Source: an uncultured Planctomycetales bacterium (GTDB taxonomy: Bacteria > Planctomycetota > Phycisphaerae > UBA1845 > Fen-1342). From it: a DNA stretch of 64,000 bases. The stretch lies in contig CAYQLG010000008.1 of NCBI GenBank assembly GCA_964418235.1, positions 2,164 through 66,163 on the forward strand, in the 5' to 3' direction. Under the pieces are notes generated by a model that did no database searches, had not been told where the DNA came from, and saw only the letters and a list, made by a program, of their open reading frames with translations. Made by a program: the position numbers and the translations under genes. This document shows positions 1 to 63,227 of the stretch, in pieces. Numbering within the stretch: position 1 is the stretch's first letter; each line of letters starts with the position of its first letter.

Positions 1-1205
1 CCGTCACAATCGAGGTCGCCCGCGGCTGCAATATTGGCGCCGAAGTACAAATGATTGAGATAGCGAAATGCCAGCGCCGGCTTGCCATTGGGCAGCAGCG
101 CCAGACTCTCCGGCCCGCCGCCCCAGCCGTCGCCCAGCGCCGTCCGCACCCAGCCGCCCGCCGTTCGGCGGTTGAGCGTCATCTCCGGCTCAAACGGAAA
201 CTGCCGCCGGGCATAGCCAACCATGAGCTCTCCCGCAGCGTCCACAGCCAGACTCGCCGGGCTGAACCATGAGCCAAAATCGAAGACGCGGTCGATCTCG
301 ACCGACTGCCAAACGCCGCCGATCAATTCTCGGACAGTCAGGCCGAACCCCACGCCGTGCACAATCACCGGTCTGCCATCGGGCGCATAGATCAGGCGAG
401 ACTCGATGCCGCCCGGCGCCGCGACGACGCTCCGCCGCCAGCCGAAGCCGTCGTGTTCGGCGAGCATGAGACGATCATGGGTAAAGTCGAGGTAAACGAT
501 GGCCGAGTGACCGGCCGGGCCGAAGGCGAGGCTGGCATAGTGGCCGCAGTTTGTCGTGTCATCGACGGTTTCGGCCCGCCAGTCGCGCCCGTCAAAAGCG
601 GCGAAGCGCAGCGTGCCCGCGAGGTGATCGCGATAGGCGATGGCGGGGTTGCCATCAGGCCGAATCGCCAGGCTCGTACCGAAAGCGGGGATCGCGACGG
701 GATCGACGACCGTGTTCTGCCAGTCTTTTCCGTCGAACCAGGCGTACTTTAAGCGGCCATTGCCGATGTCGTGATAGGCAATCGCCGGGTTGCCATCCGG
801 CAGGATCGCGAGGCTGGTGTATTCGCCGACCTGTCCATCGGCGTCGACCACGGTGGTGCGCCAGCCGATCGGCAGCCGCACGGAATAGCGCAGTTGCTGG
901 GCGAGAAGATCGAAATGACTGACGGCAGGGCTGCCGTCGGGCAGGATCGCCAGGCTGGAATAGGCGCCGACGCTGCCGACGCCTTCGCCGGCGTCCGCCA
1001 GTGCCGAGCGCCAATCAATCTGTGCCCAGACCGGCGACACGCTGAGCAGCGCGACGAGCAGCGCTCCCAGCGGCCCCCGCGTGCCGGCAGACCGCGCGGC
1101 CAACGGCCCCCCAACGTCGGCTTTTCCGACTCTGGCGAAACCATCCGGATGCGAAAGTCGCGCGTGTATGCCGAACGATTTCAGGCGATGCGATAAGCGA
1201 TACAT
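1..1205 (-). CDS. Exported beta-propeller-repeat protein whose C-terminus enters a dockerin-like loop; 3' end cut by window edge
   Basis: Not in ORF track (no stop in window). The third minus frame is open from 1205 to 1. ATG at 1205-1203 is preceded by GAGGAG. Signal-like GPLGALLVALLSVSPVWAQ. Units SLAI(L/R)PDG(N/S)PA(I/V) recur every ~140 nt (near 640-680, 780-820, 920-960). Last residues in window are AAAGDLDCDG. Confidence 0.6.
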   Translation of the reverse strand, partial: MYRLSHRLKSFGIHARLSHPDGFARVGKADVGGPLAARSAGTRGPLGALLVALLSVSPVWAQIDWRSALADAGEGVGSVGAYSSLAILPDGSPAVSHFDLLAQQLRYSVRLPIGWRTTVVDADGQVGEYTSLAILPDGNPAIAYHDIGNGRLKYAWFDGKDWQNTVVDPVAIPAFGTSLAIRPDGNPAIAYRDHLAGTLRFAAFDGRDWRAETVDDTTNCGHYASLAFGPAGHSAIVYLDFTHDRLMLAEHDGFGWRRSVVAAPGGIESRLIYAPDGRPVIVHGVGFGLTVRELIGGVWQSVEIDRVFDFGSWFSPASLAVDAAGELMVGYARRQFPFEPEMTLNRRTAGGWVRTALGDGWGGGPESLALLPNGKPALAFRYLNHLYFGANIAAAGDLDCD

Positions 1206-1539
1206 GGTGGCTCTCCTCGGCTCCGCCCGCCTGAGCGGCTGCGTCCGGCGACATCACGGCGCCGCGCAGACTCATTTATAACAAGATTGTACGTTCTAGT
1301 TCAAGCCCGTGACAGGGGACGAACGATTTTCGAGCGAGCAGGCGCTCCCTCAGACGCACGCTTTCGCCCAAGCAGGCAGGAAGAAGGCTGCTGCCGATCG
1401 ATCGGAAATCGACCGCACGCATGAGGCGTGTTCGGGAAGTGCGGCCGCCGGCTCCCAACTGATTCGCTGGGAGCCGGCCTCATCCTGGTTGAGACGGTTG
1501 CGCGCGGCCAGCTTCCATCCGCCGCGGCGGAACCCCAAC

Positions 1540-11357: not shown

Positions 11358-11565
11358 GCGGCGGCCCTCATGATGGTCTTGTGCGATCCGGCCGCGCGAA
11401 ACGCTGCATCGGCGGCGTCGGATCACGACGACGACGGCGCTAGCGCCGTCATCTCATCACCCTGATTCTACACCGGATTCATGGCGGGCGCGCGGATTGC
11501 CGCTCTAATTCCGACGAGCGGCCAGGGCAAGGGGATTCACACAGTTATCGTGAAGATGCGAAGGT

Positions 11566-16063: not shown

Positions 16064-16125
16064 ATGCAGCCAGCCTGACTCACTGTAGCACCGATTTCGC
16101 ACGGCGCGGCTGGGCAGGAGAGAAG

Positions 16126-16625: not shown

Positions 16626-17031
16626 GCGCGGCGGTCGTGGGATACGGTGGGCCGACCCGACAGCTTCACATGTCGGCAGAAGTCAGTGGCGATCCACGCG
16701 ACGAAATGCCCTGTGTGATTCAATCGCGTCAATCACGATCTATTTTTCGTGCGCGGTTTAGTCATGTCTGAGGGCATTCACGGCCCACAAATGCGAGGCA
16801 GACACTTGGCATCCGCCGAGAATATGCGCGTGGTCGCCGATCGGCGGCCGGTCTGAGAGAGTGTTCGATCCAAAGCTAAGTCAACGCGGCTGGCAGAACG
16901 ATCGCCGCACGGCGCCGAGCCTCAAGGTGCGCCGGTAACGGTTCGTTTTTTTTGTCCTGGAATCACACTGTTGTGGACGCGCTGGTTATGTCGCCATGCG
17001 CCTGTCCACAAAGCTCTCATTGGAGTGTTTT

Positions 17032-19092
17032 ATGTTTCATTCTCATCACTCGAGAAGTTGGAGCGTCAATGGCTTGGCATTGGTCATGCTGCTTGCCGCC
17101 GGCGCGTCGGCGGCTCCGCCGCGCGTGTGGACCTGGGGGCCGCCGCTGGATGACGGCACGACAGATCCAAGTACGCTCTCTGCGTGCGCACCGCGGTTTA
17201 TCCAAACCGTGCGCGTCAAAGTGATCACCGGGCATCCTACGTTGCCGATTGAAATCGGCATGACCGGCACGCAAGCCGCGACGGCGGTGTGTGAGCTGAT
17301 TCAGGCGCGTGGTTTGCAAGCCGGCGAAGTGGCGATCATTCTGCAGGACTTCGCGAAAGGAGACGGCGCACCGGATAATCCATTCCGCTATTCCGTTTCA
17401 TTGACCACCAACCACGCGGACGGTCTTACGGCGTGTGGGCCTGAGTGCCTGGTCGCTGACTGGTGGATGACGCCGTGGATGTCGAACGGCATCGCGGAAA
17501 CCCGCGCCTGGATGGAGGAGTTCGTGGCGCGCTATCAGTTTCTACAAGCGGAGGCGGCTGGGGGCGGCGGGGGTGGTCTCGAGAAATTGCCAGTGCCGCC
17601 GATTCCGAATCCTTCCCGCTTCATCTTTGACAATGAATTCGAAGTGATTTCTGGCTCTAACATGGAGGAGGTCTTCAGGTTGATGCAGTTGGAGTCGCGC
17701 TGGTACACCGAACCCATTCCGGGCTGGTTTGCTCAGACCCCAACCGGCTTGACGCCGCTCACGATGGAGGAGATCTATGACCAGGCTGGCCGGCCCCCAT
17801 ACCCGTCGGGGGCTGGTCAGGACGATCCCCCATATCTGAACTGGTTGAACTGGTACACCGGCGTGACGTACCAAGCGATTGAGGGTGCGATGAATGCGGC
17901 CGCCTACAGCGTCATTCGGCAGGCCTGGCCTGAATGCATGAGCAGCGATTACCGCACGTCATGCCGGACGGACAATGTGACCGACGAAACGCTGCCGCCC
18001 TACATCGCACGGCGTTATTACTTCGAGACGAAGCCGGGCCACCACGCTTATTGGCAGGGCTATAGCGACATGCAATCGCCGATCACCCCGCTGGTCTGGA
18101 CGCGGCACCTTCGGCCGAATGAGAGTATTTATGACTCCACCTTGCGCATCCACCGCGCCACGTTTGATTCGCTGCTGCATTCCTTCGGCGGGCAAAATCC
18201 GCCGATCGTGCCGTGGTTCAATGTGACGGTATATCTGGACCAGCTTCTGACGACGGCGGATCGCCATCATCAGCGCGATCTGCTCGCGTTGATTCGCAGC
18301 AAGGGCGTCGAAGAGCTGATCGCGTGGAGTGACGGCAACATTTTCATGGATTCACGCTTCACCTGGAATAATCTGTCCAGCGTCATCGCGCAGGTGTGGC
18401 TGGCCGCGGTGACGGATGTCAGCGTAGCGCGCGGCGTTTCAGGCAGCACGAGCGGGCCGCCGCAGGATTTGCTGCGTCACGCCGATGCCGACCCGCTGAC
18501 CTTGCTCGGCGATGGCGGAGCGGGGCAGCAGCTCGAAGTGGTCGTGGGCTTCTCGAGTTGCCTCAACAACCCCGCACGGCTGCGCGTTTCGTTGGATTCG
18601 GTTGAACAGGTCATTGGCGTACCGGACCCGACCGGTATTCCTGCAGACGCCGTGACGACGCAGGTTTCGATTCGCGACTGGAGCGCGGGCGGAACGACGC
18701 CGACCTGGCATTCGATTGGGTTCACGCGCGCCGACGCTTGCGGCAAGATCGAGGCTTTCTACGTCGAAGACGCGACCAGCTACATACGTCCCACCGACGG
18801 GCGCATCGAGATGCGGGTTGCGTATTCGTCCAGCATCGGCGGCATAGTCTCGGTGAAGCTCGATCACATCGCGGCGATCGAACTCGATCCCAGCCCGCTT
18901 GTGCCGAAGTGCCGGTTGGCCGATATCAATCATGATGATCGCTTGAACATCAACGATATCGCCGCATTCACTCTCGCATACGATGCCCAATGCCTGAAGG
19001 CTGATGTCAATCATGATGGCGTGGTGGATGCTCAGGACACGGCAGACTTTTATGAAGCGCTCACTGCCGATCCGAGTTGCTGGTCGCAGTGA
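17032..19092 (+). CDS. Exported hypothetical protein with C-terminal dockerin-like double EF-hand module
   Basis: ATG 17032 gives MFHSHHSRSWSVNGLALVMLLAAGASAAPP (signal-like). No recognisable catalytic domain. C-terminus ADINHDDRLNINDIAAF...ADVNHDGVVDAQDTADFYEAL carries two DxNxDxxxxxxD loops. Confidence 0.6.
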   Translation: MFHSHHSRSWSVNGLALVMLLAAGASAAPPRVWTWGPPLDDGTTDPSTLSACAPRFIQTVRVKVITGHPTLPIEIGMTGTQAATAVCELIQARGLQAGEVAIILQDFAKGDGAPDNPFRYSVSLTTNHADGLTACGPECLVADWWMTPWMSNGIAETRAWMEEFVARYQFLQAEAAGGGGGGLEKLPVPPIPNPSRFIFDNEFEVISGSNMEEVFRLMQLESRWYTEPIPGWFAQTPTGLTPLTMEEIYDQAGRPPYPSGAGQDDPPYLNWLNWYTGVTYQAIEGAMNAAAYSVIRQAWPECMSSDYRTSCRTDNVTDETLPPYIARRYYFETKPGHHAYWQGYSDMQSPITPLVWTRHLRPNESIYDSTLRIHRATFDSLLHSFGGQNPPIVPWFNVTVYLDQLLTTADRHHQRDLLALIRSKGVEELIAWSDGNIFMDSRFTWNNLSSVIAQVWLAAVTDVSVARGVSGSTSGPPQDLLRHADADPLTLLGDGGAGQQLEVVVGFSSCLNNPARLRVSLDSVEQVIGVPDPTGIPADAVTTQVSIRDWSAGGTTPTWHSIGFTRADACGKIEAFYVEDATSYIRPTDGRIEMRVAYSSSIGGIVSVKLDHIAAIELDPSPLVPKCRLADINHDDRLNINDIAAFTLAYDAQCLKADVNHDGVVDAQDTADFYEALTADPSCWSQ

Positions 19093-19127
19093 CGTGTAAC
19101 CATCGACGCTTGAGTCTGTATGCAGAT

Positions 19128-19160
19128 GGGGCAGGCAATCGGCCTGCCCCGTCCGATTTT
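19128..19160 (+). terminator. Rho-independent terminator after 17032..19092
   Basis: Stem GGGGCAGGC (19128-19136) pairs with GCCTGCCCC (19142-19150), 5-nt loop, then GTCCGATTTT. Confidence 0.7.
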
Positions 19161-29548: not shown

Positions 29549-29626
29549 ATCTATCGATGTGACTGTGTTCGCTTGATTGATCGGGGCAGCATGCTGGTCA
29601 TGAGCGCACACCGAGGAGGCTTTTCC

Positions 29627-30343
29627 ATGCGCCTTACCCTATCTCACTGTGTGCATACAATACATCGTCAAAGCCACACAAGTCATCAACTCGCCGCAGT
29701 GTCAGTCATCGTCGTTCTTTTGGGCGTGATCCCGCTCGAAGCGCGGATTCAGGGCGTGATTTTCGGCAGCTCGGCCCGCCCGGCCATGCTGGGTGATTTT
29801 CCAATGACGCCGTTCAATCCTGATCCGCGCCCGCCGTTTCATTTCGGCGCCGATCCAGCTACGTACACCGTGTCGGATGTGCCAACACCGCATGGCGGGG
29901 TGGTTGATTTTCGGTATGACCTTTATCATGTTCGCTGGGGTGTTGGCTGGACCGCGTGGGATGCGGTACACGGGCCGCCGTACGACATCTACACCACTAA
30001 TTCGCCGGGCAGCCCGACAGAATTCGTCGAGATGGACTTGCCCGCGGGCACGCGCGCTATCTATTTCGCCGCGTCCCATGCGTTGGGTTCATTCGGCACA
30101 TTCCACGCGATTGCCAATCAGGATATTGATACAACGGTCAGTTACAGCGTGGATGCGACACATAGCGGCTTGTTCGGCTTCTATGTCGAGAATCCGGCCG
30201 ACCCGGACATTCGCCATGTGAGCGTGGTTCTGGCCAGCTTCAGTACGATGGCGATTGGTTCGTTCGGAATTTACATCCCGGAACCGACGGCGCTGCTGCT
30301 GCTCGCGCCCGGGCTGGCATTGGCCGGTCGCGGACGGCGCTGA
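29627..30343 (+). CDS. PEP-CTERM sorting-domain exported protein
   Basis: ATG 29627 lies 7 nt after GAGGAGG. The C-terminus IPEPTALLLLAPGLALAGRGRR is PEP + TM + Arg cluster. Confidence 0.7.
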   Translation: MRLTLSHCVHTIHRQSHTSHQLAAVSVIVVLLGVIPLEARIQGVIFGSSARPAMLGDFPMTPFNPDPRPPFHFGADPATYTVSDVPTPHGGVVDFRYDLYHVRWGVGWTAWDAVHGPPYDIYTTNSPGSPTEFVEMDLPAGTRAIYFAASHALGSFGTFHAIANQDIDTTVSYSVDATHSGLFGFYVENPADPDIRHVSVVLASFSTMAIGSFGIYIPEPTALLLLAPGLALAGRGRR

Positions 30344-30762
30344 CCCCCGTTTGCACGAAACTCGGGTGCGACAGGCTAACGGCATGGAAATTGTAACCAT
30401 CAGCGACAGGCTGAAACCTGACCCGCCCAATCTTGCGGGCCCACCGAGGGACGGCCCTCACATTCCTGCACGCCGCCGGAGCGCCTGCATCACCCATTCG
30501 CGCGGTCTGAGCAAAGGCCTGTCGCCGCTTGAGCGGTTCATCGAGGGCTTGACGATGCCAACCGCATCAAGCCACGCGAAAGGGGATCGCCCGGATCGGT
30601 GAACGCGTGAGCCAGGAAATCTCTCGACGCGCGATCGGCCGGTCGGCTATTCTGAAGGCGGACGGGAGAGCGGCATTCGAAGCGGCAGGGGCGCAGCCTG
30701 CCGGACCGGCTCTCTCAATGTCCGCCTTCCGCGGACTGGCGCGAAGATCGGGAGCTATTGCT

Positions 30763-31881
30763 ATGTTTGACTCAATCACACGCGGCTGTCGTCGTTGTAC
30801 GGGGCTGTTCGTGGGCGCTTTGGCGTGTGCGGTGCTGACGCCGCTCGCCGCGGCTCAGGATATTCGCCTCGATCCGCCGGCGAATTGGATCGAAGAGCGC
30901 GCTGAGCCGCGGCCGTCGCCCGCCGCCCGCCGGGGCGCTCGAGCGCTGACCCGGAACTCTACCGCCGATGGCGGCGCGTTTACCAACAACATCATGATCA
31001 CCGGCTATTGGCCGCCGACGAACGAGATGATCCGCCGCTTCAGTGATGATCCGACCCAGAACCCGGCCGGCTGGGTCGGCGGCAATTGGGAGGGGCGCGG
31101 CTATGACATCTATGCGTTCTTCCCGGAGTTTCCCGGCGGCGTGCTGGCCCGCGGCGTCGGCGACTTCGAGGTCGATTATCAGGATACGTCCAATGACTGG
31201 TGGCCGCTGGTGCAGCAGTTGCAGCCGGTCGCGATCATCACCTTCAGCCGGGCCAACACGCAGCGCGGCTGGGAATTGGAAGGGGGGCATCGCAAGTACG
31301 ATCTGAGCCTTTGGACGGTGGACTATCTCGCGCCGACGCGGCCCACGCCGGAGTTGCCGATCGCGAGCGAGCCGAACAACAACGAGCGGTTCAGCTCGCT
31401 GCCGATGCAGGCGATCGTGAATGCGGTCGACGAGACGCCGGCGCTGGTTGATCCGTTCATCGCTCCCTTTGACGAGGGTCGTTTTCTCTCGAATTACATT
31501 GGCTATCACGGCTGCTGGTATCACGATCTGCACGCCGCACCGAGCGACCCGGCGTGGAACGTCGCCGCCGGCCATATTCACGTCGGCCAAAACACGGCCT
31601 TGCCCGATGCGGTCAGCGCAACCGAGACCACGTTGCGCGTGCTGATCGACGTTGTGAATCGGCGGCTGGGGGTGGTCGCGGCGCCGGCGGACATGAATTG
31701 CGACGGGTTGGTGAATTTTGACGACATCACCGGCTTTGTGCTGGCACTGACCGACCCGAGCGCGTATGCCGCGGCGATCCCGGCGTGCCGCTATCTGAAC
31801 GCCGACACGAATGACGACGGGCTGGTGAATTTCGATGATCTCAATGGGTTCGTGCAGTGCTTGACGGGCGCGTGCCCTTAG
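30763..31881 (+). CDS. Exported pyroglutamyl-peptidase I (C15)-like domain protein with dockerin-like C-terminal module
   Basis: ATG 30763 after GGGAG. Signal CRRCTGLFVGALACAVLTPLAAAQ. IMITGYWPP, PVAIITFSRANTQRGWELE, SLPMQAIVNAV, GRFLSNY and AGHIHVG align by eye with the PGP-I blocks LLTGFDPF, PDIIICVGQAGGR..PE, GLPIKRIVEEI, GTFVCNH and GGFIHIP. C-terminus DMNCDGLVNFDDITGFV...DTNDDGLVNFDDLNGFVQCLTGACP. Confidence 0.65.
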   Translation: MFDSITRGCRRCTGLFVGALACAVLTPLAAAQDIRLDPPANWIEERAEPRPSPAARRGARALTRNSTADGGAFTNNIMITGYWPPTNEMIRRFSDDPTQNPAGWVGGNWEGRGYDIYAFFPEFPGGVLARGVGDFEVDYQDTSNDWWPLVQQLQPVAIITFSRANTQRGWELEGGHRKYDLSLWTVDYLAPTRPTPELPIASEPNNNERFSSLPMQAIVNAVDETPALVDPFIAPFDEGRFLSNYIGYHGCWYHDLHAAPSDPAWNVAAGHIHVGQNTALPDAVSATETTLRVLIDVVNRRLGVVAAPADMNCDGLVNFDDITGFVLALTDPSAYAAAIPACRYLNADTNDDGLVNFDDLNGFVQCLTGACP

Positions 31882-38616: not shown

Positions 38617-41268
38617 TTACCCGCCGGCGACCAGCGCCTGCACGAAGGGCCCGATGTCGTTGAACGTGACGAGGTTGTCACCGTCCACGTCCGCCTGCAG
38701 GTAATCACACGCCGGGAATTGGGCGTCATAGGGCGCCTGCCCGACCAGCGCGACGACGAACGGGTTGATGTCGTTGAAATCGACGCGTCCATCGCAGTTC
38801 GTATCGCCGGGCAGCGTAACGCGGACCTCGACCGTGGCATGCGCCGTTTCGCCGCGCGCATCCGTGGCCGACAGGGTGATCGTGTGGAGCGCCAGATAGC
38901 GCTCCGGCGAGATCGACAGTTGCAGGGCCGCGCACGGGTTGAGCGTCGTGCCCAGCGGGGTTTCGGTGGTAGCGTCGTTCCATCTCACCGAATAGGGCGG
39001 AATGCCGCCGTTGACGCGGCCGTTGAAACAGACCTCAGCGCCCGGTCGCACGCGCACGCCGTCGACGGGCGCGACAACATCGGCCGCCAGCGGCGGGGCA
39101 TCCACGTGGATGTCGAGCGTCGCGCCGCTGCGGTTGCCGGCGGTATCGGTCAGCGTGACCAACAAGTGCGCCGTCGGGCGAATCCATTGCTGCGGAATGG
39201 CGCAGGGCTGCTCGTAGTAACCGAACTGCACGTCGTCGACCTGGATCGAACGCACCGGCGTGCGGACGTTGCCGATCGTGATAGCCGGGCCGAGCGCCGC
39301 CAGGTCGCCGAGCACGCGCGTCAGCGGCAACAGCGTCACCGTGCCCTCAGGTTGCAACATGCGATAGCCGTGCCGGGCGGTCCGCAGAAGTTGCCCGTTG
39401 TCGCCGAGGATCACGTTCAACTCCCCGCCCGGGCCGAAGACCGGCGTCTGGGCCGGGCCGAGCGTGCGGCGGAAGACCACGCGCTGCGCGAGGTTGAAGC
39501 TGCTGGCCGCCAATTCTTCGCCGCTGCGCCGATCCACATCAGCCTGGCGGATGAAATCGACAAACGCCACCTGGGCGCCAGTCGGGAATTGTCCCCACGC
39601 CGTCAGAAAGCCGGTGGCGGTCTCGACGGCCTGACTGGCGCTGAGCAGGCGCGGCGGGGCGGCGCGCGGCGTGAGCCAGGTGCGCTCGTCGGTCAGCTCG
39701 ATCGCGCGCGTAGCGCGGCAGACGCGCAACTTGATTGGACCATCGACGGCATGAATCGTGTCGCCGCTGGGGTTGGTGGCGATTTGCGCGCCGCAGAGCT
39801 GCTGGCCAGTGCCGCACAAACGCTCCGCGATCGCGGCGACCGTTTGCTCGGTGGCCGGCTGCGTGATGTTGCGAAAGAGCGTCGCCGTCGCCGGCAGACC
39901 GCCGTTGGCCGCGAGCAGATTCGCGGAAACGATCACTTCGACGCTCTCGCTGGAATCGGCGTTGGCATCGAAGACAACGGGATTCTCAACCGGCGGCTGA
40001 GCCTGGTGCTGATAGCGGATCAGTGCGGACGGATGCTCTTCGCCGTCCGAGTCGGAGGTGGTGACGAAGTTCCAGCGCGTGTAGCAGCAATCGACGACCG
40101 GATCGGCGGCGACGGTCCCTTCGCCCCAGATGTAATCGTTGCCCATCGTGCTGTTTTCACCGATCACGCGGATATCGACGCCGCTGCCCATGAAGCGATC
40201 CATCGTTTCGAACCAGGCGGTCTTGACGCGCGTCGCGCCGTCGAGGAACCAGGTCGAGACGAGCCGCTCGCCGAAATCTTCGCCATATTCGGCGTCGGCG
40301 ATGTTGTCGACCGCGCCGCAGATCAGGTGCAGCCCGTCCATCGCATTGGCCCAGCCGCCATCGCTGGTGAGCGTCTGACAGACGGCGAGCGCGACCCACT
40401 CGAGATCGCCATCGCCCCAGGCGCCGCTGGCGTCGCCGGTGGAGACGCAGCAATCGTCGCGGGTCTGGTTGCCGAAGATGAAGCTGGTCGAGTTGCCGTG
40501 GCCGGCGAAATAGGCGAAATCGCGCGCGTCGGGGTATGTGCCTTCGGTGCCGCCGCTCGCGGAGCGCTTCCAATCCTCTTCCCAAGCCGAGCTATTTCCG
40601 TAGCCGGCCCAGGCCCAGCCGGCGTCATCGAGTTCGTCGCGCAGGCCCCAGGCGTCGTCGTCGCAGGCCGGCAGGTTGATCTGTCCGGTTCCGGCATAGT
40701 TCACCACATATTCATAGAAAAACGTGTTCCCGCCGCCGTCGCCGCTGTCATCGAGATCGGTCTGCTCGAGCCGCGGGATGATCTGGATGACGCCACGGCC
40801 ATCAGGCTTCTCGGGGTCCGCCGGCGTAACGAGCCGCACCGCCTGCGCGTGAACCGCTTCGCCGAAAATCCAGCTTTCGCCGCTGCCGGCAACAATCGTG
40901 GCGGCGTAGGGTTGCCAGGCGCCGTCGAGGTCTTGAACTTCCACGGTGTGTATCGCGGCGGCTCCGACGATTTGAAGCGTGTTCAGCCAGCGTGGCGCGC
41001 CCAGGCGCAGGATTTGTTCTGTTTGACCATCGCCGCGCTGGGTCAGGTGAACGCGCGCCGCAGCTTCCGCCGTAACGATTTGCCCGCGAAAAACCGGCGC
41101 TCCGCCGGCAGCGCCCCAGCCCCCGGCAGAGTGCGCCTCTCCGGCCACGAGCGGGGCCGTTGCCATCAAGGCCCCCGCGAGGCTTGAAGACAAGATCCGC
41201 CGGCAAGCCGGTCGCAAACGAGCTGATTTATCGCCAAGTGGATGCGATGTTCGGCGAAGCCGATCCAT
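38617..41268 (-). CDS. Large exported multidomain protein: discoidin-like N-domain, clan-CD-like His/Cys dyad region, Ig-like repeats, dockerin-like C-terminal module
   Basis: ORF open to 41337; ATG 41268 gives MDRLRRTS...SSSLAGALMATAPLVAGEA. FAYFAGHG and WVALAVCQ lie 40 residues apart. C-terminus GDTNCDGRVDFNDINPFVVAL...ADVDGDNLVTFNDIGPFVQALVAGG. The 889-aa plus-strand ORF is antisense noise. Confidence 0.7.
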   Translation of the reverse strand: MDRLRRTSHPLGDKSARLRPACRRILSSSLAGALMATAPLVAGEAHSAGGWGAAGGAPVFRGQIVTAEAAARVHLTQRGDGQTEQILRLGAPRWLNTLQIVGAAAIHTVEVQDLDGAWQPYAATIVAGSGESWIFGEAVHAQAVRLVTPADPEKPDGRGVIQIIPRLEQTDLDDSGDGGGNTFFYEYVVNYAGTGQINLPACDDDAWGLRDELDDAGWAWAGYGNSSAWEEDWKRSASGGTEGTYPDARDFAYFAGHGNSTSFIFGNQTRDDCCVSTGDASGAWGDGDLEWVALAVCQTLTSDGGWANAMDGLHLICGAVDNIADAEYGEDFGERLVSTWFLDGATRVKTAWFETMDRFMGSGVDIRVIGENSTMGNDYIWGEGTVAADPVVDCCYTRWNFVTTSDSDGEEHPSALIRYQHQAQPPVENPVVFDANADSSESVEVIVSANLLAANGGLPATATLFRNITQPATEQTVAAIAERLCGTGQQLCGAQIATNPSGDTIHAVDGPIKLRVCRATRAIELTDERTWLTPRAAPPRLLSASQAVETATGFLTAWGQFPTGAQVAFVDFIRQADVDRRSGEELAASSFNLAQRVVFRRTLGPAQTPVFGPGGELNVILGDNGQLLRTARHGYRMLQPEGTVTLLPLTRVLGDLAALGPAITIGNVRTPVRSIQVDDVQFGYYEQPCAIPQQWIRPTAHLLVTLTDTAGNRSGATLDIHVDAPPLAADVVAPVDGVRVRPGAEVCFNGRVNGGIPPYSVRWNDATTETPLGTTLNPCAALQLSISPERYLALHTITLSATDARGETAHATVEVRVTLPGDTNCDGRVDFNDINPFVVALVGQAPYDAQFPACDYLQADVDGDNLVTFNDIGPFVQALVAGG

Positions 41269-41596
41269 CCGGCTGTCGGCGCCGCGCCGCCGCACCAAAC
41301 CGGATTCGCCCCTTAAGCTTCTTCCGTAACTGACCATAAGAAGTCTCCGAAAAAGTTATCAAAAAAACCACTCTTTGCCCGCCGCCGCACGTGCGCCGGC
41401 ATCGACTTTTCGCATGAGCTTGTTTCTGAGAGCTACATGCCTGGCTTCTGCGAGATCATCCGGAAATACAAACGTAGATTAGCTCGCTTTGTTTGCAGCT
41501 TGTTTCAGCCTAGCTTGTTGCGGGGACAGCACCAAACGATTTTCTGGAAGTGGACGCGGCTTTCACAGGCGGGCGCGATCGTTTATCGTAAATTCC

Positions 41597-44421: not shown

Positions 44422-45837
44422 TTAGCAGCCACCCGCGACGACGCAGGCCACGAAGCCGTTGATGTCGTCGAAGTTGACGACGCCGTCCTGATTGACGTCC
44501 GCCGTGAGCGGATCGCAGGCCGGATACTGAGCCAGGTAAGCCGCCTGATCAATGATCGCCAGCGTAAACGGCGTGATATCGTCGAAGTTGACGACGCCGT
44601 CGCAATTCGTATCGCCCAGCGGGCCGACCGGCACCGGCGTCGGGACGCTGACGCCCGAAACGACCAGGTTGCCCAGCGTGCCCGGACGGAAGAGGCCGAT
44701 CGTCACGTTGCCGTTGGTCGGCGGGCGGGTCGAGTCGAAGCGGAAGTTGTAGAGCGTGCTCCAGCGGAGGGCGTTGGCCGTCAGGTCATTCGCTGTGGTC
44801 CACGTCTCCGTGCTCCAGGTGATCGCGTTGCCGGCGGTGGAGTTGGTCCAGTCGGTGCCGACCTGGCGCTCGCCGCTGTGATAGGCGATGTCGCGGAATT
44901 CGATGTTCGAAAGTGTGCCGCCGCGATTGGGCACGCTGAATGAATTGGCCCCGCGATGCGAATTCAGGTTGTACAGAGCATACTCATAGTGCCAGCGACC
45001 GCCGCCGAGGTCGGTGGTTTTCCAACCGAGATAGAAGCGACCCTCACTGGGAACCTGCACGATGCGGACCTGGGCGCCCGGGTCGTTGGCCGGCCAGGCC
45101 ATGATCGCCGGCAAAAGGCGGAAGGTCGGACCGGTGGCGCTGACGATATAACCGCCGCCGCTCAGCGCACCGACCGAGAGGCGCTCATAGGAAGCGTTGT
45201 TGTTGCCGTTGCTGCCGCCGTCGGCTTGTCCAAAGAACTGAGCGTCGTCTTGGGTGATGTATTGTCCTTCGGCGAAGTAGATGGCGCCGGGGTTGAGCGA
45301 GGGGTTGAAATCGTCGTTGCTGACCTGAATGCGCTTATAGATCGCATCGCCGGTCTGGCTGCGCGCGAAGTGCGGGAAGGCGAAAACGCCGGTCCAGGCG
45401 TTGACTTCGAACTTCGGACCGAGGTTGCCCTGCGAGCCGTTGAGGCCGGCGCTGTACGGATCGGAGCAGCCGACGCCGAGCACCGAGCCGCCCTGGCCGC
45501 TGCACGAGTGGCAGAGACTCTGCGTCAGAGCGGTGAAACCATGCTTGAGCCAGCCCTGGCCGATCATCTCGAACCGGCCATTCTTGAGCCTGTACATGTT
45601 CTGGGCGATGACCGGGTGACGGTTCGTGCTCGAAACCCAGGCGATCGTCGCCGAGCCGATGTTGCACGAGGTGGTGCCGATCGAGTAGGACGTGGTGTTG
45701 CCGATGGTGCCCCACTTGTTGATGTCGAGCAAGTCGCCCACGATGACGTCGGGTCCATTCGTGCGTGTTTGGGCGCTCGCGACCAGCGCAGCATAACCCA
45801 GACAGAACCCCAGCATTGCAAACCGAGTGCGCTTCAT
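44422..45837 (-). CDS. Exported hypothetical protein with dockerin-like C-terminal module
   Basis: ATG 45837 after GGGAGAGG. Signal MKRTRFAMLGFCLGYAALVASAQ. C-terminus GDTNCDGVVNFDDITPFTLAI...ADVNQDGVVNFDDINGFVACVVAGGC. Confidence 0.65.
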   Translation of the reverse strand: MKRTRFAMLGFCLGYAALVASAQTRTNGPDVIVGDLLDINKWGTIGNTTSYSIGTTSCNIGSATIAWVSSTNRHPVIAQNMYRLKNGRFEMIGQGWLKHGFTALTQSLCHSCSGQGGSVLGVGCSDPYSAGLNGSQGNLGPKFEVNAWTGVFAFPHFARSQTGDAIYKRIQVSNDDFNPSLNPGAIYFAEGQYITQDDAQFFGQADGGSNGNNNASYERLSVGALSGGGYIVSATGPTFRLLPAIMAWPANDPGAQVRIVQVPSEGRFYLGWKTTDLGGGRWHYEYALYNLNSHRGANSFSVPNRGGTLSNIEFRDIAYHSGERQVGTDWTNSTAGNAITWSTETWTTANDLTANALRWSTLYNFRFDSTRPPTNGNVTIGLFRPGTLGNLVVSGVSVPTPVPVGPLGDTNCDGVVNFDDITPFTLAIIDQAAYLAQYPACDPLTADVNQDGVVNFDDINGFVACVVAGGC

Positions 45838-46144
45838 GCAACCTCTCCCAAAGGACTTGTTCAAGTGCCTGATTCCAGTCGCGGTTTCGACCCCGGCGCC
45901 TCGCCGAGCGTGAACCGATCCGACCTCTGCCAAGAATCTCAGTCTACAACACGCCGCCCAAGACTCAAGAGTATTTGCATATCGCTGGGAAGTTTTGCCG
46001 AATAATTTTCGGTCGATGTCGGCTATTTCGTTCAAATCGTTCAGCGCGATCGCGTACTGAAAACTAGAGTGATCGATCCGTTTGTCCGGCATCGAGCCGC
46101 CTGGTCGCCGCCTCTGCTGCCGGAGCGGCAGGGTGGCGGCCGGC

Positions 46145-47923: not shown

Positions 47924-47926
47924 GCG

Positions 47927-48463: not shown

Positions 48464-49395
48464 AGCCACTCCACATCGGCCCGCGGCCGTTGGTGCAGCT
48501 CCATGTCCAGTTCATCCAGCAGCGCCGCCGCGCGCGGCGAGAGCGCCGTGGGAACCACAATCTTCACGACGGCGTACATGTCGCCCGGTTCGCCGCGGCG
48601 TGGGTCGGGCACACCCCTGCCGCGCAGCCGCAGCTTCCGCCCGCTCGATGAGCCAGGCGGAATCTTGATGGTCGTGCGGCCCGAGAGCGTGGGAATATCA
48701 AGCGTCGCGCCGCGCGTCGCCTCGACGATGCTGAGCGGGACATCGAGCAGGATGTCGCGCCCCTCGCGACGATAGTAAGGATGCGGCGCAATCCGCACGC
48801 AGATCAGCAAATTCCCACGTCCGCCGCTGCCGGGCTGGCCGCGTCCGCGCACGCGGATGATCTGTCCATCATCCACCCCCGGCGGAATCCGCACCGCGAT
48901 GTGCTCCTGCTCGTCGCCTTGCAGGATGATCTCGCGGGTTGTGCCGTGAATCGCCTCGTCAAACGAGATGACGACGTCGTGTTTGATGTCTTCGCCGAGG
49001 GTTGCGGCGGACGCGCCGCGACGGCCGCGGGAGGTGACGCGCCCGCCGCGTGAGAAGAACTGCTCGAAGATGCCGCCGAGGTCGCCGATGTCTCCGAAGT
49101 GGATCGAGCCTTCGGCGTGATGTCCGGGGCCGCGGCCAGCGGCTTGATCGTTCCACCCGCGCATGTCGGGAGGCGGGCCGCCGGCGCCGAAGCGATCGTA
49201 TTGCGCTCGTCGATCAGCATCGCCCAGCACGTCGTAGGCGGCCTGGGTTTCCTTGAAGCGCTTTTCCGCGGCCTTGTCGCCGGGGTTTCGGTCGGGGTGG
49301 TATTGCTTGGCGAGCCGGCGGTAGGCCTTTTTGATTTCTTCCGCGCTCGCCGTTCGCGACACCCCCAGGATGACATACGGGTCTTTGCTGCTCAT
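48460..49395 (-). CDS. cbpA: J-domain co-chaperone of the CbpA type (DnaJ C-terminal domains, no zinc finger)
   Basis: [34 protein letters not shown] (HPD motif), a G-rich linker, and CTD I/II ([17 protein letters not shown]..., [21 protein letters not shown]). No CxxCxGxG repeats. Confidence 0.8.
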
Positions 49396-58199: not shown

Positions 58200-58949
58200 A
58201 TGAGCACGCATCTGCTTTCCGTTCGGACGGATCACGCCATCGAACTGACGTTGAATCGGCCGGAGGCGCGTAACGCACTCTCACGCGCGCTGATCGCGGA
58301 TCTGACTGCGGCGCTGGAGGAAGCCCAGCGCGACGCGGAGGTGCGCAGCGTGATCATCACGGGCGCGGCGCCGGCCTTTTGCGCGGGGCTGGACCTGCGC
58401 GAAGTGGCCGCGACGACCGCGGATCAGGCCGAGCATGACGCCAGTTCGCTGCTGACGCTCTTTGAGACAATCGACAATCTGAGCAAGCCGGTCATTGCCG
58501 CCGTCAATGGGCCGGCGGTCGCGGGCGGGGCCGGGCTGATCTCGGTGTGTGACATCGTCCTATGCGGCGATTCGGGCCGGGTCGGCTATCCCGAGATCAA
58601 GCGCGGCCTCGTCGCGGCGATCGTGATGACTTATCTGCGCCGCCTGGTCGGCGAGCGGCAGGCCAAGTGGCTGCTGCTGACAGGCGAGACGCTCTTACCG
58701 GCGGCGGCGCAGCAAATGGGGCTGATCAACGAGGCGGTCAGCGACTCCGAATTGTTGCCGCGTGCGCGCCATTACGCCGCTGTGTTTGCCGGCTATCCGC
58801 CGCAGGCCTTGGCGAATACGAAGCTGCTATGGGGCAAGATTCGGAGTCTGGCTCATGCCGACGCGGTGCAGGAGGCGCGGAACCTCAATGCGTCGATGCG
58901 CCTGACCAACGAATCGCGCGCCGGCGTGAGCGAATTCCTGAAGCGCTAG
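58200..58949 (+). CDS. Enoyl-CoA hydratase/isomerase (crotonase) family protein
   Basis: Internal ATG 58200. IELTLNRPEARNAL, ITGAAPAFCAGLDL, AAVNGPAVAGGAGL. Confidence 0.8.
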   Translation: MSTHLLSVRTDHAIELTLNRPEARNALSRALIADLTAALEEAQRDAEVRSVIITGAAPAFCAGLDLREVAATTADQAEHDASSLLTLFETIDNLSKPVIAAVNGPAVAGGAGLISVCDIVLCGDSGRVGYPEIKRGLVAAIVMTYLRRLVGERQAKWLLLTGETLLPAAAQQMGLINEAVSDSELLPRARHYAAVFAGYPPQALANTKLLWGKIRSLAHADAVQEARNLNASMRLTNESRAGVSEFLKR

Positions 58950-59539
58950 CGCCGTCTTCGTCGCAGCATGATGGGGCAGAGCAGCAGCATGGCAGCGGTC
59001 GCCGGCTCAGGAATCGCGCTCACACGCAGGTTGAAGGTGTAGTTGTGCCGGCGCGACGTGTCGAGTTCCATCAACCACAATGAATAAACCCCGGGGCCGA
59101 GCGGCGGCGCAAAGCCGATTGCCCCAGGCCCCGTCGCGATCACCGGCAGGATGTCCTGACCCTGATCGGCGGAGCCGTAGTGCGCCCAGCCGAGGAGCGG
59201 ACCGGCGTCGACCGTGGTGTAGGGCACGGTGATCTGCGGGCCGGCTTGCAGCCCGATGAATGAAAAGGCGCCGCCGACATCGGCCTCCGCCACAATGAAG
59301 GCCTCGAGTTGCAGACCCGCGGGGATCGTGATCGTGGCATAGTCGAGGTCAAGCTGAAAGATCGCGGCTCCCGCTCCGAATGTTCCGCGCAGCACATTAT
59401 CTCCCGCGCCGAGCAGCAGCGGCGTGGGCGCCAGCCGCTCGTCCGAAAGATCGCCGGAGAGCGCTTCGTCATAGCTGTTCGCGAGGGCAGCGCTGAGAGG
59501 AGCCAGCAGCATGAGCAACATGATCGGGTAACGGTCCAT
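58946..59539 (-). CDS. PEP-CTERM sorting-domain exported protein
   Basis: ATG 59539. Signal MDRYPIMLLMLLAPLSAALA. C-terminus IPEPATAAMLLLCPIMLRRRRR. Its stop overlaps the convergent crotonase stop at CTAG (58946-58949). Confidence 0.7.
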   Translation of the reverse strand: MDRYPIMLLMLLAPLSAALANSYDEALSGDLSDERLAPTPLLLGAGDNVLRGTFGAGAAIFQLDLDYATITIPAGLQLEAFIVAEADVGGAFSFIGLQAGPQITVPYTTVDAGPLLGWAHYGSADQGQDILPVIATGPGAIGFAPPLGPGVYSLWLMELDTSRRHNYTFNLRVSAIPEPATAAMLLLCPIMLRRRRR

Positions 59540-59701
59540 AGTTGAACTGCTCAATGGGGTTAGAGTTTTCCGTGTCGCGGCATCAAGACCGTCGGAGGCA
59601 TGAGATTCCTTACGCGACGCCCATGCGTCGTTCATTTCACGTGCGCCGGGCATGACGCGTGCGCCGGGGGGCGTTGAACGGCGCACGCCGGGTTCAAAGC
59701 G

Positions 59702-61009
59702 TTAGAGGCTGCCGACGAATCCGCCGATGTCGGCAAAGTCGACCACGCCATTGCCGTCGAAATCAGCTTGCAGCCATTCGCAATCGCGCTGTTCAAGGCG
59801 ATAGTCGGCGCGGCTGATGACGGCGAGCACGAAAGGCTCGATATCGTTGAAGTCGCGGGCGCCGTCGCAATTCATGTCGCCGATCTCGAAGGGAAAGTGA
59901 AAGAGCTTGCCGAAGATGCCGTCTTCTTCGTTGTTGGGGCCGGCGGTGAAGTAAAGGTGGTTGGTGCGCCCGAGCTGGTCGCCGTTGCCGTATGTCAAGC
60001 CCCAGATGCCGTCGATCACGACCGGCTCGCCGTTACGGTCGCGCAAGTAGTCGATGAAGCGGCGGGTGGTGCGGTCAAATGCGATGATCGTGCCGTCGCC
60101 GAAGTTCGCCGCGAGCAGCGCGCCGCTCAGCGCGCCGAAGTCGTCGGGCGCAATCGCCAGCCCCCAGGGGGCATTCAGGAAGAGGCCGTGCTCATAGCTG
60201 GCGAGATAGCGGCCCTCAAGATCAAACTCCGAGATATAGCCATAACCCGGATAGGCGTCCTCTTCGCCGGTTTCATCGCCCAGGCGCGCCCACGCGACGA
60301 AAATCTTGCCATCGAGAAGCTGCATGTTGTACTGCGAAAAGACCGGCCAGACGTTGGGATCACGGAAATCGCCCGCAACGGGAATACGGCGGAACTGCTC
60401 GTCGTAGACGGCCCACGTCTCCAGCCCGAAATCGCACAGATAGAGCCGATTGCCCGACGGAAAATCCGTAATGGCCATGCCCGTATAGGCGCTGCCCGCG
60501 GCGGACGTGTCGATCATATTCACCGCGGTCGTCATGCCGGTGGTCCAGGCCGAAACGGTTCCGTCAAGCGTGCAGAAGATGAAGCGCGACGGCCCGGTCA
60601 AGCCCTCGCCGCTGATGATGAAGTCGGTGCGTGAGCCGCAAAAGACCTGACCGGTTGGTTGCGAGAGGGTCTCGGGCAGGCGCGCGAAGATCATCGACGA
60701 CGGAATATCCACCACGCGCAAGTCGTCTTGAAAAATCGGCAAGCCCGGGACATCGCCGACGTAGGTCGTCGTCGTGCCGCTGCCGGCGTTGGAGGTCCAG
60801 AAGTGGCCGCCGACGGCCGGCGGGCGCAGGGCAATGCCCCACGGGTTGATGAGCAGCGGGTCGATGAGCTGCGGCTCGAACTCGGCGCGGTTGGCGACGA
60901 GATTGACCTGCTGATAGCGATTGACTTCGGCCCAGCTCGATACGGTCAGCGCGGCGGCGATGAGCGCGGCGAGAATTCGTCCCGAGTTTGAGAAGTATGG
61001 AGTGCTCAT
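59702..61009 (-). CDS. TIGR03118-like beta-propeller protein with dockerin-like C-terminal module
   Basis: Signal ILAALIAAALTVSSWA. YQQVNLVANRAEFEPQLIDPLLINPWGIALRPPAVGGHFWTSNAGSGTTTTY resembles the TIGR03118 N-terminus (from memory). C-terminus GDMNCDGARDFNDIEPFVLAV...ADFDGNGVVDFADIGGFVGSL. Confidence 0.65.
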   Translation of the reverse strand: MSTPYFSNSGRILAALIAAALTVSSWAEVNRYQQVNLVANRAEFEPQLIDPLLINPWGIALRPPAVGGHFWTSNAGSGTTTTYVGDVPGLPIFQDDLRVVDIPSSMIFARLPETLSQPTGQVFCGSRTDFIISGEGLTGPSRFIFCTLDGTVSAWTTGMTTAVNMIDTSAAGSAYTGMAITDFPSGNRLYLCDFGLETWAVYDEQFRRIPVAGDFRDPNVWPVFSQYNMQLLDGKIFVAWARLGDETGEEDAYPGYGYISEFDLEGRYLASYEHGLFLNAPWGLAIAPDDFGALSGALLAANFGDGTIIAFDRTTRRFIDYLRDRNGEPVVIDGIWGLTYGNGDQLGRTNHLYFTAGPNNEEDGIFGKLFHFPFEIGDMNCDGARDFNDIEPFVLAVISRADYRLEQRDCEWLQADFDGNGVVDFADIGGFVGSL

Positions 61010-61409
61010 TGTCGTCTTGTCCTCGCTGAATGAAGCGCTTGGGTGCGCTCTCAGCCGGCACCGATCGAGTTTCGATGATGTCAGCGGGCGCTGCTGCCAT
61101 CAGCGCACGGCGCGATGGCGACAGACCTTGTCCAAAGATGTTTACAGCCATCCGTGAAGAAACGGCCAGCTTGCCATGAAAAATGAATGAGCTACGCGCG
61201 ATGCGCTGCATGTGCGCGCACCAGGCTGTCAAGGAAAATGAGGAACATTCATCATGTCTTGACAAATCCAGCAGCGATCGTTGACCGGCTCTTTACATCG
61301 GAGTCCTACATTCCTGGGGTTGACGTGGTCAAAAACAAACAACACGAGCGCGTCGCCGGCGGGCGACAGGCCACGCCAGTGTTTCCGACAGGCAACAGGA
61401 GAGGCTCCC

Positions 61410-63227
61410 ATGAATCGCATGATGATGATCGGCGGCGCGTGTAGCGCGCTGCTCTGCGCGGCGAGCGTTCAGGCTCAACTGCGCGGTCCCAGCACCAGCC
61501 AGGATCCTTACATTCTGCCGTCCAGCACGACTAGCGGCGTGGTCACGATCTCGATCGCCAGCAACGGCAACGGAACGAGTGCGCCAAATGAGACATTCAC
61601 GCGCACCACGACCGGCGCGAATGACTATCGTCTGGTCGGCATCCCCGACGGCATGGGCGCCTATCAGACGGCCGCCGACATTGCCGCCGGCCGGTTTGTC
61701 CTGCTGTGCAATCACGAGTTGGGCGCGACCAGCGGCATCGTCCGCCGGCACGGCAACCGCGGCGCGTTTGTTTCATCGTGGATCATTAATGCCGACCCGG
61801 CTGACCTGCGCGTGCTGAGCGCCGACGACATGCACACGACGTTCAACCTGTGGGTAAGCGGCGCGTATAGCGCGTTTGACACGACCAACCCGATGCCGGC
61901 CTACACCGGCACGCTGGCGCCGCCGCCGGCGGTCGCGCCGTTCAACGGCATCGGTCGCTTTTGCTCGGCCGACCTGGCTGAGCCGGGCGCCTATCGCTTC
62001 GGCAGCTTGGGCACAGATGCGCGCATCCTGCTGAATGGCGAGGAAATCGGCGCGAGCGGCCGCGCGTTTGCGCACGTCGCGACCGGCCCCGAGGCGGGTG
62101 TATCGTATGAGCTGCCCTATTACAGCAAGTATTCATGGGAAAACGCTGTCGCCAGCCCGTTCCCGCAGCAGAAGACGGTTGTCATCGGCCTCGATGACTC
62201 GACCCCCGGCGGCATCTACATCCACGTCGGTACGAAGCAGGCCAGCGGCAACGAAATTCAGAAAGCCGGCCTCGACAATGCTCAGCTTCTCGGCATTGTG
62301 GTGGCGGGCGTGTCGATTACCGCCGGCCAGCCGGTGGAAGATCGCGTCTGGGGTCTGGGCACCTCGACGACCGGCTTCATCGGCAGCAAGCCCTTTACCA
62401 CGTATGACTTCGGCACGACGCCGTCGCTGACCGGCGCGCAGTTGCAGTCTATCGGCGACGCCAACGGCGTGATCAACTGGCTCCGTCCGGAAGACGGCTG
62501 CTGGGACACCCGCGACCCGCGCAAGTTCTACTTTGTCACGACCGACACATTCGCCGGCAACAGCCGCATCTGGGAGCTCGAGTTCACCGATATCACACAA
62601 CCCGAGCTGGGCGGCGTGGTGACGATGCTGGGCGACGGTTCGGTTCCGGGGAGCTTCGCCGGCGGCATCCGCTCGGCCACCGGTCTGACCGACGTGCGCA
62701 TGATGGACAACATCGGCATGTCGCGCTACAACCAGATCGTCATTCAGGAAGACGTCGGCAACAACCCGCGCCTCGGCCGGCAGTGGCTGTATGACATCGC
62801 CCGCGACCGCATCACTGAGATCACGATCTCGGCGGCGGATCGCTTCACGCTCGGCCGGCCGGGCTTCCTGACGCAGGACGAAGAGGCTTCGGGTGCGATC
62901 GACGTGACCGGCATTCTTGGCCGCGGCTGGTGGGCGATCAACATGCAGTCGCACTACGGCATTTCCGGCGAATTGGCCGAAGGCGGCCAGCTTTTGGCGA
63001 TGTATGTGCCCAAGACGGTGAGCTGGCTCGGCGACGTGAATTGCGACGAGGTCGTGAATTTCGACGACATTGACGGCTTTGTGCTGGCGCTCACCGGCCG
63101 GGCGGCTTACGAGGCGGCCTATCCGGGTTGTGAATTCATGCTGGCCGATGCCAACGATGACGAGGTCGTCAACTTCGACGACATCTCGACCTTTGTCGAT
63201 TGCATCGTGAGCGGCGCTTGCCCGTAA
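61410..63227 (+). CDS. Exported propeller protein, distantly PhoX/DUF839-like, with dockerin-like C-terminal module
   Basis: ATG 61410 after AGGAGAGG. Signal MNRMMMIGGACSALLCAASVQAQ. GIPDGMGAY...LLCNHEL and IVIQEDVG resemble PhoX-family blocks; the functional call is weak. C-terminus GDVNCDEVVNFDDIDGFVLAL...ADANDDEVVNFDDISTFVDCIVSGACP. Confidence 0.6.
   Translation: MNRMMMIGGACSALLCAASVQAQLRGPSTSQDPYILPSSTTSGVVTISIASNGNGTSAPNETFTRTTTGANDYRLVGIPDGMGAYQTAADIAAGRFVLLCNHELGATSGIVRRHGNRGAFVSSWIINADPADLRVLSADDMHTTFNLWVSGAYSAFDTTNPMPAYTGTLAPPPAVAPFNGIGRFCSADLAEPGAYRFGSLGTDARILLNGEEIGASGRAFAHVATGPEAGVSYELPYYSKYSWENAVASPFPQQKTVVIGLDDSTPGGIYIHVGTKQASGNEIQKAGLDNAQLLGIVVAGVSITAGQPVEDRVWGLGTSTTGFIGSKPFTTYDFGTTPSLTGAQLQSIGDANGVINWLRPEDGCWDTRDPRKFYFVTTDTFAGNSRIWELEFTDITQPELGGVVTMLGDGSVPGSFAGGIRSATGLTDVRMMDNIGMSRYNQIVIQEDVGNNPRLGRQWLYDIARDRITEITISAADRFTLGRPGFLTQDEEASGAIDVTGILGRGWWAINMQSHYGISGELAEGGQLLAMYVPKTVSWLGDVNCDEVVNFDDIDGFVLALTGRAAYEAAYPGCEFMLADANDDEVVNFDDISTFVDCIVSGACP

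Follow-up and report, generated by a model that had tools for sequence, protein, structure and literature searches.

The 64,000-nucleotide stretch analyzed here (hereafter the window; positions 2,164 to 66,163 of contig CAYQLG010000008.1, assembly GCA_964418235.1, from an uncultured Planctomycetales bacterium) encodes a set of apparently exported proteins that differ in their N-terminal parts and share a short cysteine-containing module at their C-termini. We refer to these proteins as carriers and to their N-terminal parts as passengers. We searched the window as a six-frame translation with hidden Markov models (HMMs) of the module and found that a clear copy, 60-67 amino acids long, ends five open reading frames (ORFs). 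Scored with an HMM derived from themselves, the five copies reach 109-122 bits, which is circular, and the rest of the six-frame translation stays at 5 bits or less; an independent HMM, built from 226 copies of other organisms, recovers the five at 84-101 bits. With these scores, chance or low complexity can be ruled out as the source of the module. Together with one ORF cut by the window edge and one with a divergent tail, the carriers are as follows.

1..1253, minus strand: carrier 1, cut by the window edge; start at about 1205; signal peptide MYRLSH...LLSVSPVWAQ; repeat-rich passenger.
16996..19092, plus strand: carrier 2, likely start 17032 (MFHSHH...); divergent dockerin-like tail at 18910-19089; passenger without a family assignment.
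30607..31881, plus strand: carrier 3, likely start 30763 (MFDSIT...); module at 31687-31878 with a GACP end, 115 / 96.9 bits; passenger without a family assignment.
38617..41337, minus strand: carrier 4, module at 38620-38808 without the C-terminal Cys pair; passenger with DUF6345 (Pfam, E 8e-38).
44422..46092, minus strand: carrier 5, likely start 45837 (MKRTRF...); module at 44425-44616 with a GGC end, 122 bits; passenger without a family assignment.
59702..61009, minus strand: carrier 6, module at 59705-59881 without the C-terminal Cys pair; TIGR03118 passenger (349 bits), from a family in which PEP-CTERM tails are frequent.
61281..63227, plus strand: carrier 7, likely start 61410 (MNRMMM...); module at 63030-63224, 119 bits; passenger without a family assignment.

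Within the window, carrier 1 ends in ...AAAGDLDCD (bases 20-3), whose GDLDCD represents the first half-loop of the module; a sixth copy therefore begins at the left edge. The tail of carrier 2 has Cys near both ends and scores 24 bits with the module HMM, 25.7 with the NCBIfam model NF041540, 30.5 with an ad-hoc HMM of the GC-type dockerins discussed below and 16.9 with Pfam Dockerin_1. Judged by these scores, it is an intermediate, roughly equidistant from the GC-type and the type found in the rest of the window.

The region 16001-20000, which coincides with the gene of carrier 2, is the G+C minimum of the window (0.609 vs. about 0.64-0.66), and the ORF also failed the third-position G+C filter; because of these two signals, the ORF may be a more recent acquisition.

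A preliminary description of the window, made by reading the sequence, had listed seven carriers and a consensus for their shared module. The module is present at the places it gave, as seen from both ORF reading and HMM scores, and its consensus agrees with our alignment of the window copies. The count of seven needs qualification: five copies are canonical, one is an edge fragment only, and the 17032 copy, correctly singled out as a more divergent member (24 bits vs. 109-122 for the canonical five), stands between the window type and the GC-type. We also agree that the carriers are probably exported, in that all seven have plausible Sec signal peptides that combine a basic stretch with a hydrophobic run and an Ala-x-Ala-like site, judged by eye and not with a predictor. 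The N-terminal domains are unrelated, as had been claimed: pairwise comparison of the passengers gave no significant similarity, the best pair having an E-value of 0.007. When searched against Pfam, NCBIfam and PDB sequences, the passengers matched only DUF6345 (the 38617 protein) and TIGR03118 (the 59702 protein, as the earlier label had it); the Pfam scan of the carrier 1 passenger and the PDB sequence searches with four passenger regions gave no match. The labels "C15-like", "PhoX-like" and "clan-CD-like" proposed for other passengers were not reproduced by these searches, which for the first two neither confirms nor refutes them.

Calcium loops, cysteines and relation to known dockerins

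Each half of the module consists of a D-x-N-x-D-G-x-V-x-x-x-D loop followed by I-N-P-F-V-x-A-L. The module as a whole thus has the layout of a dockerin, with two tandem segments of about 22 residues that each combine a 12-residue EF-hand-like loop and a helix. In the alignment of the window copies, the invariant positions are D5, N7, C8, D9, F14, D16, I17, F20, A23, Y30, C37, A42, D43, V50, F52, D54, F58 and V59, and among the 226 copies of other organisms the loop residues D5/N7/D9/G10/V12/(D/N)13/D16 and D43/N45/D47/G48/V50/(D/N)51/D54 have frequencies of 0.7-0.99. The module of carrier 7 departs from the family in having Glu instead of Gly at position 6 of both calcium loops (NCDE, NDDE).

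On its sequence pattern, we classify the module as an "NCDG...PxC" variant (hereafter NCDG-type), which has one Cys in loop 1 and another just before loop 2; an optional second pair, C-x5-C, is found at the very C-terminus. The 226 copies contain both C8 and C37 in 180 cases, neither in 28 and a single one in 18 (Fisher p 1.6e-20, shared ancestry ignored). For C61 and C67, the corresponding numbers are 62, 150 and 14 (Fisher p 2.8e-39, again with shared ancestry ignored), and the two window copies without C61 are without C67, too. Since the cysteines co-occur as two pairs, they suggest two disulfide staples, C8-C37 and C61-C67, which would fit an exported domain.

To place the module structurally, we built an AlphaFold (AF2) model of the carrier 5 copy from a 119-sequence alignment. 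The model has a mean predicted local distance difference test score (pLDDT) of 97 and a predicted template-modeling score (pTM) of 0.85, and contains three main helices and a short fourth one, the predicted structure having the three-helix dockerin fold. The top 19 Foldseek matches in the PDB were all type I dockerins with template-modeling (TM) scores of 0.6-0.7, and the best of them, 4dh2_B and 4fl4, reached TM 0.68-0.70 and probability 0.99-1.0 at 28-38% identity; their E-values, 0.04-0.5, are modest, as is to be expected from so short a query (67 residues). At the sequence level, the family profile found dockerins among PDB sequences at E 2e-6 to 1e-3, and Dockerin_1 (PF00404) matched 45 of the 119 relatives at E ≤ 0.01, with sub-threshold or partial matches, and 14 of 78 relatives at E ≤ 1e-3, some of which pass the gathering cutoff. 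Among the window copies, the one at 59702 had no match to Dockerin_1, and the EF-hand models gave weak matches. As the predicted fold, the PDB profile matches, the PF00404 matches and the conserved calcium loops all agree, the module is very probably a dockerin-family domain by both fold and homology. This upholds the earlier proposal of a domain resembling type I dockerins with two EF-hand-like calcium loops.

The module resembles type I dockerins (PF00404; 4dh2_B, 4fl4, 1ohz_B) in being about 60-70 amino acids long and usually C-terminal in secreted proteins, and in having two tandem F-hand calcium loops with the same spacing and a helix after each; its halves are near-identical, as in type I dockerins, which would make a dual binding mode possible. 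Unlike type I dockerins, the window module has conserved Cys in loop 1, before loop 2 and at the C-terminus, and a conserved helix motif F-D-D-I-N-P-F-V-x-A-L. It also differs in its biological setting: the host is a Gram-negative-type planctomycete, the passengers are not mainly carbohydrate-active enzymes, and the searches made found no cohesin or scaffoldin for it.

The preliminary description had further considered that the module might be a dockerin variant already catalogued. NCBIfam does contain a related entry, NF041540 ("GC-type dockerin domain-anchored protein", cutoff 29), on which three of the five window copies score 16.1, 18.1 and 28.9 bits and two have no match; none of the 119 relatives passes the cutoff, the best one reaching 28.9. 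We found true GC-type tails among the homologues of the TIGR03118 passenger, with 33.6-73.8 bits on NF041540, and regard them as genuine because the scores reach 73.8 bits over the whole profile. Alignment of the window type with these tails using hhalign gave a probability of 97.3% and an E-value of 1.8e-11, and on the strength of this profile-profile match we consider the two to be sister variants. The catalogued entry is thus a sister of the window type, whose own copies and relatives stay below its cutoff.

The window type and the GC-type are both C-terminal tails, both are found on TIGR03118 passengers, and the terminal Gly-x-Cys of the former aligns to the terminal Gly-Cys of the latter. 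In contrast to the window type, which has no N-terminal Cys, the GC-type begins with Cys and ends with GC, an arrangement that suggests a clasp between the N- and C-termini. The GC-type also has neither Cys in loop 1 nor the Y-x4-P-x-C linker, whereas the window type has Cys at position 4 of loop 1 and a linker longer by 11 alignment columns. The combination of first-position Cys, terminal Gly-Cys and short linker that characterizes the GC-type is absent from the window type, and the two types have only a terminal G-x-C in common. With the ad-hoc GC-type HMM, we found no further GC-type carriers in the window.

Dockerin domains and their GC-type variant were known before; what is new is the NCDG-type variant with its own cysteine layout. 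NCBI, JGI and other sources label the relatives "hypothetical protein", and our literature search found no paper describing this variant, the name "GC-type dockerin" or the interchange of a dockerin with PEP-CTERM tails. Most copies of the module are missed by the present Pfam and NCBIfam cutoffs, and its recognition would give thousands of "hypothetical" Phycisphaerae proteins a defined and modeled C-terminal domain.

Distribution, passengers and interchange with PEP-CTERM tails

A word-indexed search with a single module as the query gave only 2 matches, and profile searches were therefore needed. An exhaustive search with the HMM through 1.84 billion representative proteins produced 9,811 matches at E ≤ 1e-3, of which 4,598 also had E ≤ 1e-10, and a scan of GTDB with one genome per species gave at least 234 confirmed matches. 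The best 80 of these at least 234 come from about 29 metagenome-assembled genomes (MAGs), nearly all assigned to Phycisphaerae, Phycisphaerales or Planctomycetota; among the GTDB matches listed, the closest module is 67% identical to that of the window. One module contig (locus L064, VAYX01000137.1) belongs to an "Actinobacteria" MAG, for which a binning error or gene transfer is possible. Another locus, the 7.5-kb L001 (Logan SRR12977061_24768) from run SRR12977061, encodes a protein identical to the carrier at 59702-61009, and its neighbors match the gene order of the window, with an identical PEP-CTERM protein, an enoyl-CoA hydratase, an FHA protein and a HemN-like gene. The identity indicates that the same or a very close organism was present in that sample.

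We collected 80 loci, in total 1.25 Mb of related sequence, each chosen for having a carrier. They contain 167 ORFs with the module, 164 of them with a single copy, and in 162 of the 167 the end of the module is at most 8 residues away from the stop codon; the same is true for 136 of the 152 best database matches. According to a simple gene call, 158 of the 861 genes in the loci and the window are carriers. When the 80 seed genes are left out, about one gene in ten carries the module, a figure that is biased upward because the loci were picked for a carrier.

The passengers are diverse: 78 full-length carriers match 105 Pfam families, among them beta-helix, FG-GAP, NosD, LVIVD, subtilase, Kelch, Ig/PKD and thrombospondin-type repeats, and carbohydrate-active enzymes do not predominate. 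A crude hydrophobicity test for a signal peptide was passed by 78 of 109 full-length relatives. With the module in the terminal position in 162 of 167 carriers and more than 100 passenger families, the module is a portable C-terminal unit, as the preliminary description had it. In some proteins the module is also found internally, in tandem or near the N-terminus. Some proteins, P0003 among them, consist of a signal peptide and two or three tandem modules and nothing else, and in others, such as P0010 and P0011, the modules alternate with thrombospondin-type calcium repeats. Two database proteins with RHS repeats, P0031 (2,142 amino acids) and P0037 (2,363 amino acids), have the module near the N-terminus and may be surface-tethered polymorphic toxins.

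The window also encodes two small exported proteins with classical tails of another kind.

29573..30343, plus strand: PEP-CTERM protein, exported, with the tail IPEPTALLLLAPGLALAGRGRR; just upstream of carrier 3; no Pfam match at E ≤ 0.001.
58946..59686, minus strand: PEP-CTERM protein, small and exported, with IPEP, a hydrophobic stretch and RRRRR; directly downstream of carrier 6.

The presence of these two proteins implies that the organism uses both kinds of tail. The two kinds replace each other in related proteins. A homologue of the 58946-59686 protein in a Phycisphaerae MAG (L047) has the module at the same junction ("...NLRF" vs. "...NLRV"). The same pattern was found in the second passenger family: of the 120 best homologues of the TIGR03118 protein, 62 have no tail, 19 have a PEP-CTERM tail, at least 22 have a dockerin-like tail of either variant and 17 have another extension, which in three cyanobacterial proteins consists of RTX repeats (Pfam PF00353). 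One more TIGR03118 homologue has a dockerin-like segment followed by PEP-CTERM. The closest of the homologues are 61-67% identical to carrier 6, and several are labeled Phycisphaerales. Taken with the best module match (67% identity) and the presence of a DUF1571 protein, they assign the window to Phycisphaerae or a near relative.

The module and the PEP-CTERM/exosortase tails (PF07589) thus occupy the same C-terminal junction, occur on the same passenger families and coexist in the window. They differ in construction: a PEP-CTERM tail is a short motif followed by a transmembrane helix and a basic tail and is processed by a dedicated enzyme, whereas the module is predicted to be a soluble, folded calcium-binding domain. 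The carrier tails are without a hydrophobic stretch, and the models for PEP-CTERM, the C-terminal domain of the type IX secretion system (T9SS CTD) and RTX (PF07589, TIGR04183 and PF00353) had no match in the six full-length carriers. PEP-CTERM tails are associated with exopolysaccharide-producing systems. In two passenger families the module takes the place of an established cell-envelope sorting tail at one and the same junction, and from this, the strongest evidence obtained here, we infer that it may serve as a retention or anchoring device. In the preliminary description, the module was called a portable anchor or sorting tag; "portable" is well founded, and the anchor role follows by inference only, from the tail swaps.

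Candidate partners and the role of the module

We searched for a partner of the module in several ways. Pfam Cohesin had no match among the about 36 proteins of the window, in agreement with the earlier statement that no cohesin-like partner is visible there. For a wider search, we built a narrow cohesin HMM from three C. thermocellum CipA cohesins, whose sequence was checked against 1aoh, 1ohz and 3kcp, and applied it to the six-frame ORFs of the window and the 80 loci; the best E-value was 0.9, a negative that is weak because the profile is narrow. Six large multi-domain carriers with internal modules, scanned as candidates for a scaffoldin-like protein that combines a dockerin with a cohesin, contain RHS repeats, PEP-CTERM, WD40/Kelch and RCC1 according to Pfam, and no cohesin. 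Clustering of the 861 genes revealed no conserved non-carrier neighbor. The recurrent non-carrier families in the loci are Ser/Thr kinases with TPR repeats, sigma-54 response regulators, ABC ATPases and extracytoplasmic function (ECF) sigma factors; we rejected them as partners, since they are ordinary planctomycete paralogue families. No conserved processing or cleavage motif was found upstream of the module. All these partner searches span well under 1% of the genomes concerned.

Of the genes within the window, the following are related to secretion or the envelope; no link between any of them and the module could be demonstrated.

1540-4872, 6092-9723 and 10212-11426, minus strand: a tricorn-type protease (PD40 propellers, PDZ and S41); an HlyD-type adaptor and an ABC exporter; an ATPase of the type II secretion system/type IV pilus (T2SS/T4P) type.

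An expansion of dockerins in Planctomycetes has been noted earlier (PMC5264255). For freshwater Phycisphaerae (Nemodlikiaceae), a "planctosome" has been hypothesized, in which non-cellulosomal cohesin-dockerin complexes hold peptidases on the outer membrane (PMC6461901). Our case is similar in concerning the same lineage and the possible tethering of enzymes other than cellulases; it differs in that the planctosome hypothesis rests on recognizable cohesins and dockerins, and no cohesin was found here.

The explanation that we favor, with somewhat better than even confidence, is that a calcium-bound tail docks the carriers to a shared receptor in the cell envelope. Sec would export the carrier by means of its N-terminal signal peptide, and outside the cytoplasm the tail would take up two Ca2+ ions and form one or two disulfides to become a small, rigid three-helix knob. 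This knob would then dock noncovalently on a common envelope receptor, which may be a cohesin-like protein from another part of the genome or a component of a different kind, and so keep varied enzymes and binding proteins on the cell instead of their being lost to the water. The module and the PEP-CTERM tail of the same genome would be interchangeable in this retention role. The site of retention may be the cell surface or the enlarged planctomycete periplasm, which sequence does not separate.

Several of our results weigh against this explanation or the homology behind it. The window copies score 7.6-16.9 bits on Dockerin_1 and lie below its gathering cutoff of 22.9, and they also miss the curated cutoff of NF041540; the check with PF00404 and NCBIfam that the preliminary description had proposed thus supports homology and leaves the window copies outside both curated families. 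The counts of cysteine co-occurrence ignore the shared ancestry of the sequences. Cohesins were found neither among the window proteins nor, with the narrow HMM, in the loci nor in the six large multi-domain carriers, and no conserved neighbor gene offers itself as the receptor. Finally, the tail swaps demonstrate interchangeability and are not proof of equal function.

The absence of cohesins in all searches made would be expected if the ligand were not a protein, and a clearly less probable alternative is that the module binds, perhaps via its calcium sites, an envelope component such as peptidoglycan, a glycan layer or an anionic exopolysaccharide, or associates with itself and cross-links surface proteins. 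It is in line with a non-protein ligand that the module swaps with PEP-CTERM, a tail generally tied to exopolysaccharide systems, and that many non-cellulosomal genomes encode far more dockerin-like modules than cohesins. For self-association speak the tandem modules of P0003 and the alternation with thrombospondin-type repeats in P0010 and P0011, which look like cross-linkers. On the other hand, similar and conserved helices across thousands of proteins form the pattern of a dual-mode protein docking face, and the absence of cohesins is weak evidence, coming as it does from narrow searches in a small fraction of any genome.

By analogy with T9SS CTD, RTX and exosortase substrates, the tail might instead be a secretion or sorting signal for dedicated machinery and be removed or modified after transport. 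Its strictly C-terminal position, its swaps with PEP-CTERM and, in the cyanobacterial TIGR03118 homologues, with RTX repeats, and the presence of the HlyD and ABC exporter pair and the T2SS/T4P-type ATPase in the window would agree with this. We nevertheless regard a secretion signal as improbable. Type I substrates are without the N-terminal Sec signal peptides seen on the carriers, and the module, which is predicted with confidence to fold into a compact helical domain, has neither a transmembrane segment nor a basic tail; it also occurs internally, in tandem and, in the giant RHS-repeat proteins, near the N-terminus. Moreover, no conserved cleavage motif precedes the module, the window carriers do not match the T9SS-CTD, PEP-CTERM or RTX models, and no conserved machinery gene adjoins the carriers. 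Even less probable is a tail that acts as a calcium- and disulfide-based stability cap against proteases and has no targeting role. The Cys pairs and calcium loops do suggest a very stable knob, and a cap would need none of the partners that we failed to find, but it would be unexpected for a cap to replace sorting and anchoring tails at one junction, to occur as tandem modules without a passenger or to have such conserved exposed helix residues.

If docking to an envelope receptor is the role of the module, it would be a way for these abundant aquatic and soil planctomycetes to hold a great number of varied exports, from proteases and beta-helix proteins to propellers and RHS toxins, and the tail itself would provide a handle for fishing out the receptor. 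A small, disulfide-stapled dockerin could also serve as a docking tag. More speculatively, and with rather low confidence, the NCDG-type tail could be a lineage-specific, cohesin-independent retention system that in some Phycisphaerae tethers about a tenth of all gene products on or in the cell envelope by way of one receptor; if true, it would be a major and so far undescribed protein-anchoring route parallel to PEP-CTERM/exosortase.

Other genes of the window

The window has 64% G+C and is ordinary chromosome with housekeeping genes throughout, including those for glycine dehydrogenase, UvrB, ATP-dependent DNA ligase, aspartate carbamoyltransferase, arginyl-tRNA synthetase, DnaJ and transporters; a DUF1571 protein is also encoded. 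At 34191-38552 on the minus strand, UvrB is immediately followed by the ligase, which has three domains (DNA_ligase_A_N/M/C). Two long plus-strand ORFs, at 46082-47311 and 47807-48775, have Arg-rich nonsense translations; they probably arise as antisense artefacts from the high G+C content, and the actual gene there seems to be the one at 46145-47923 on the minus strand, just upstream of carrier 5, which encodes a 592-amino-acid membrane protein with TPR-like repeats.

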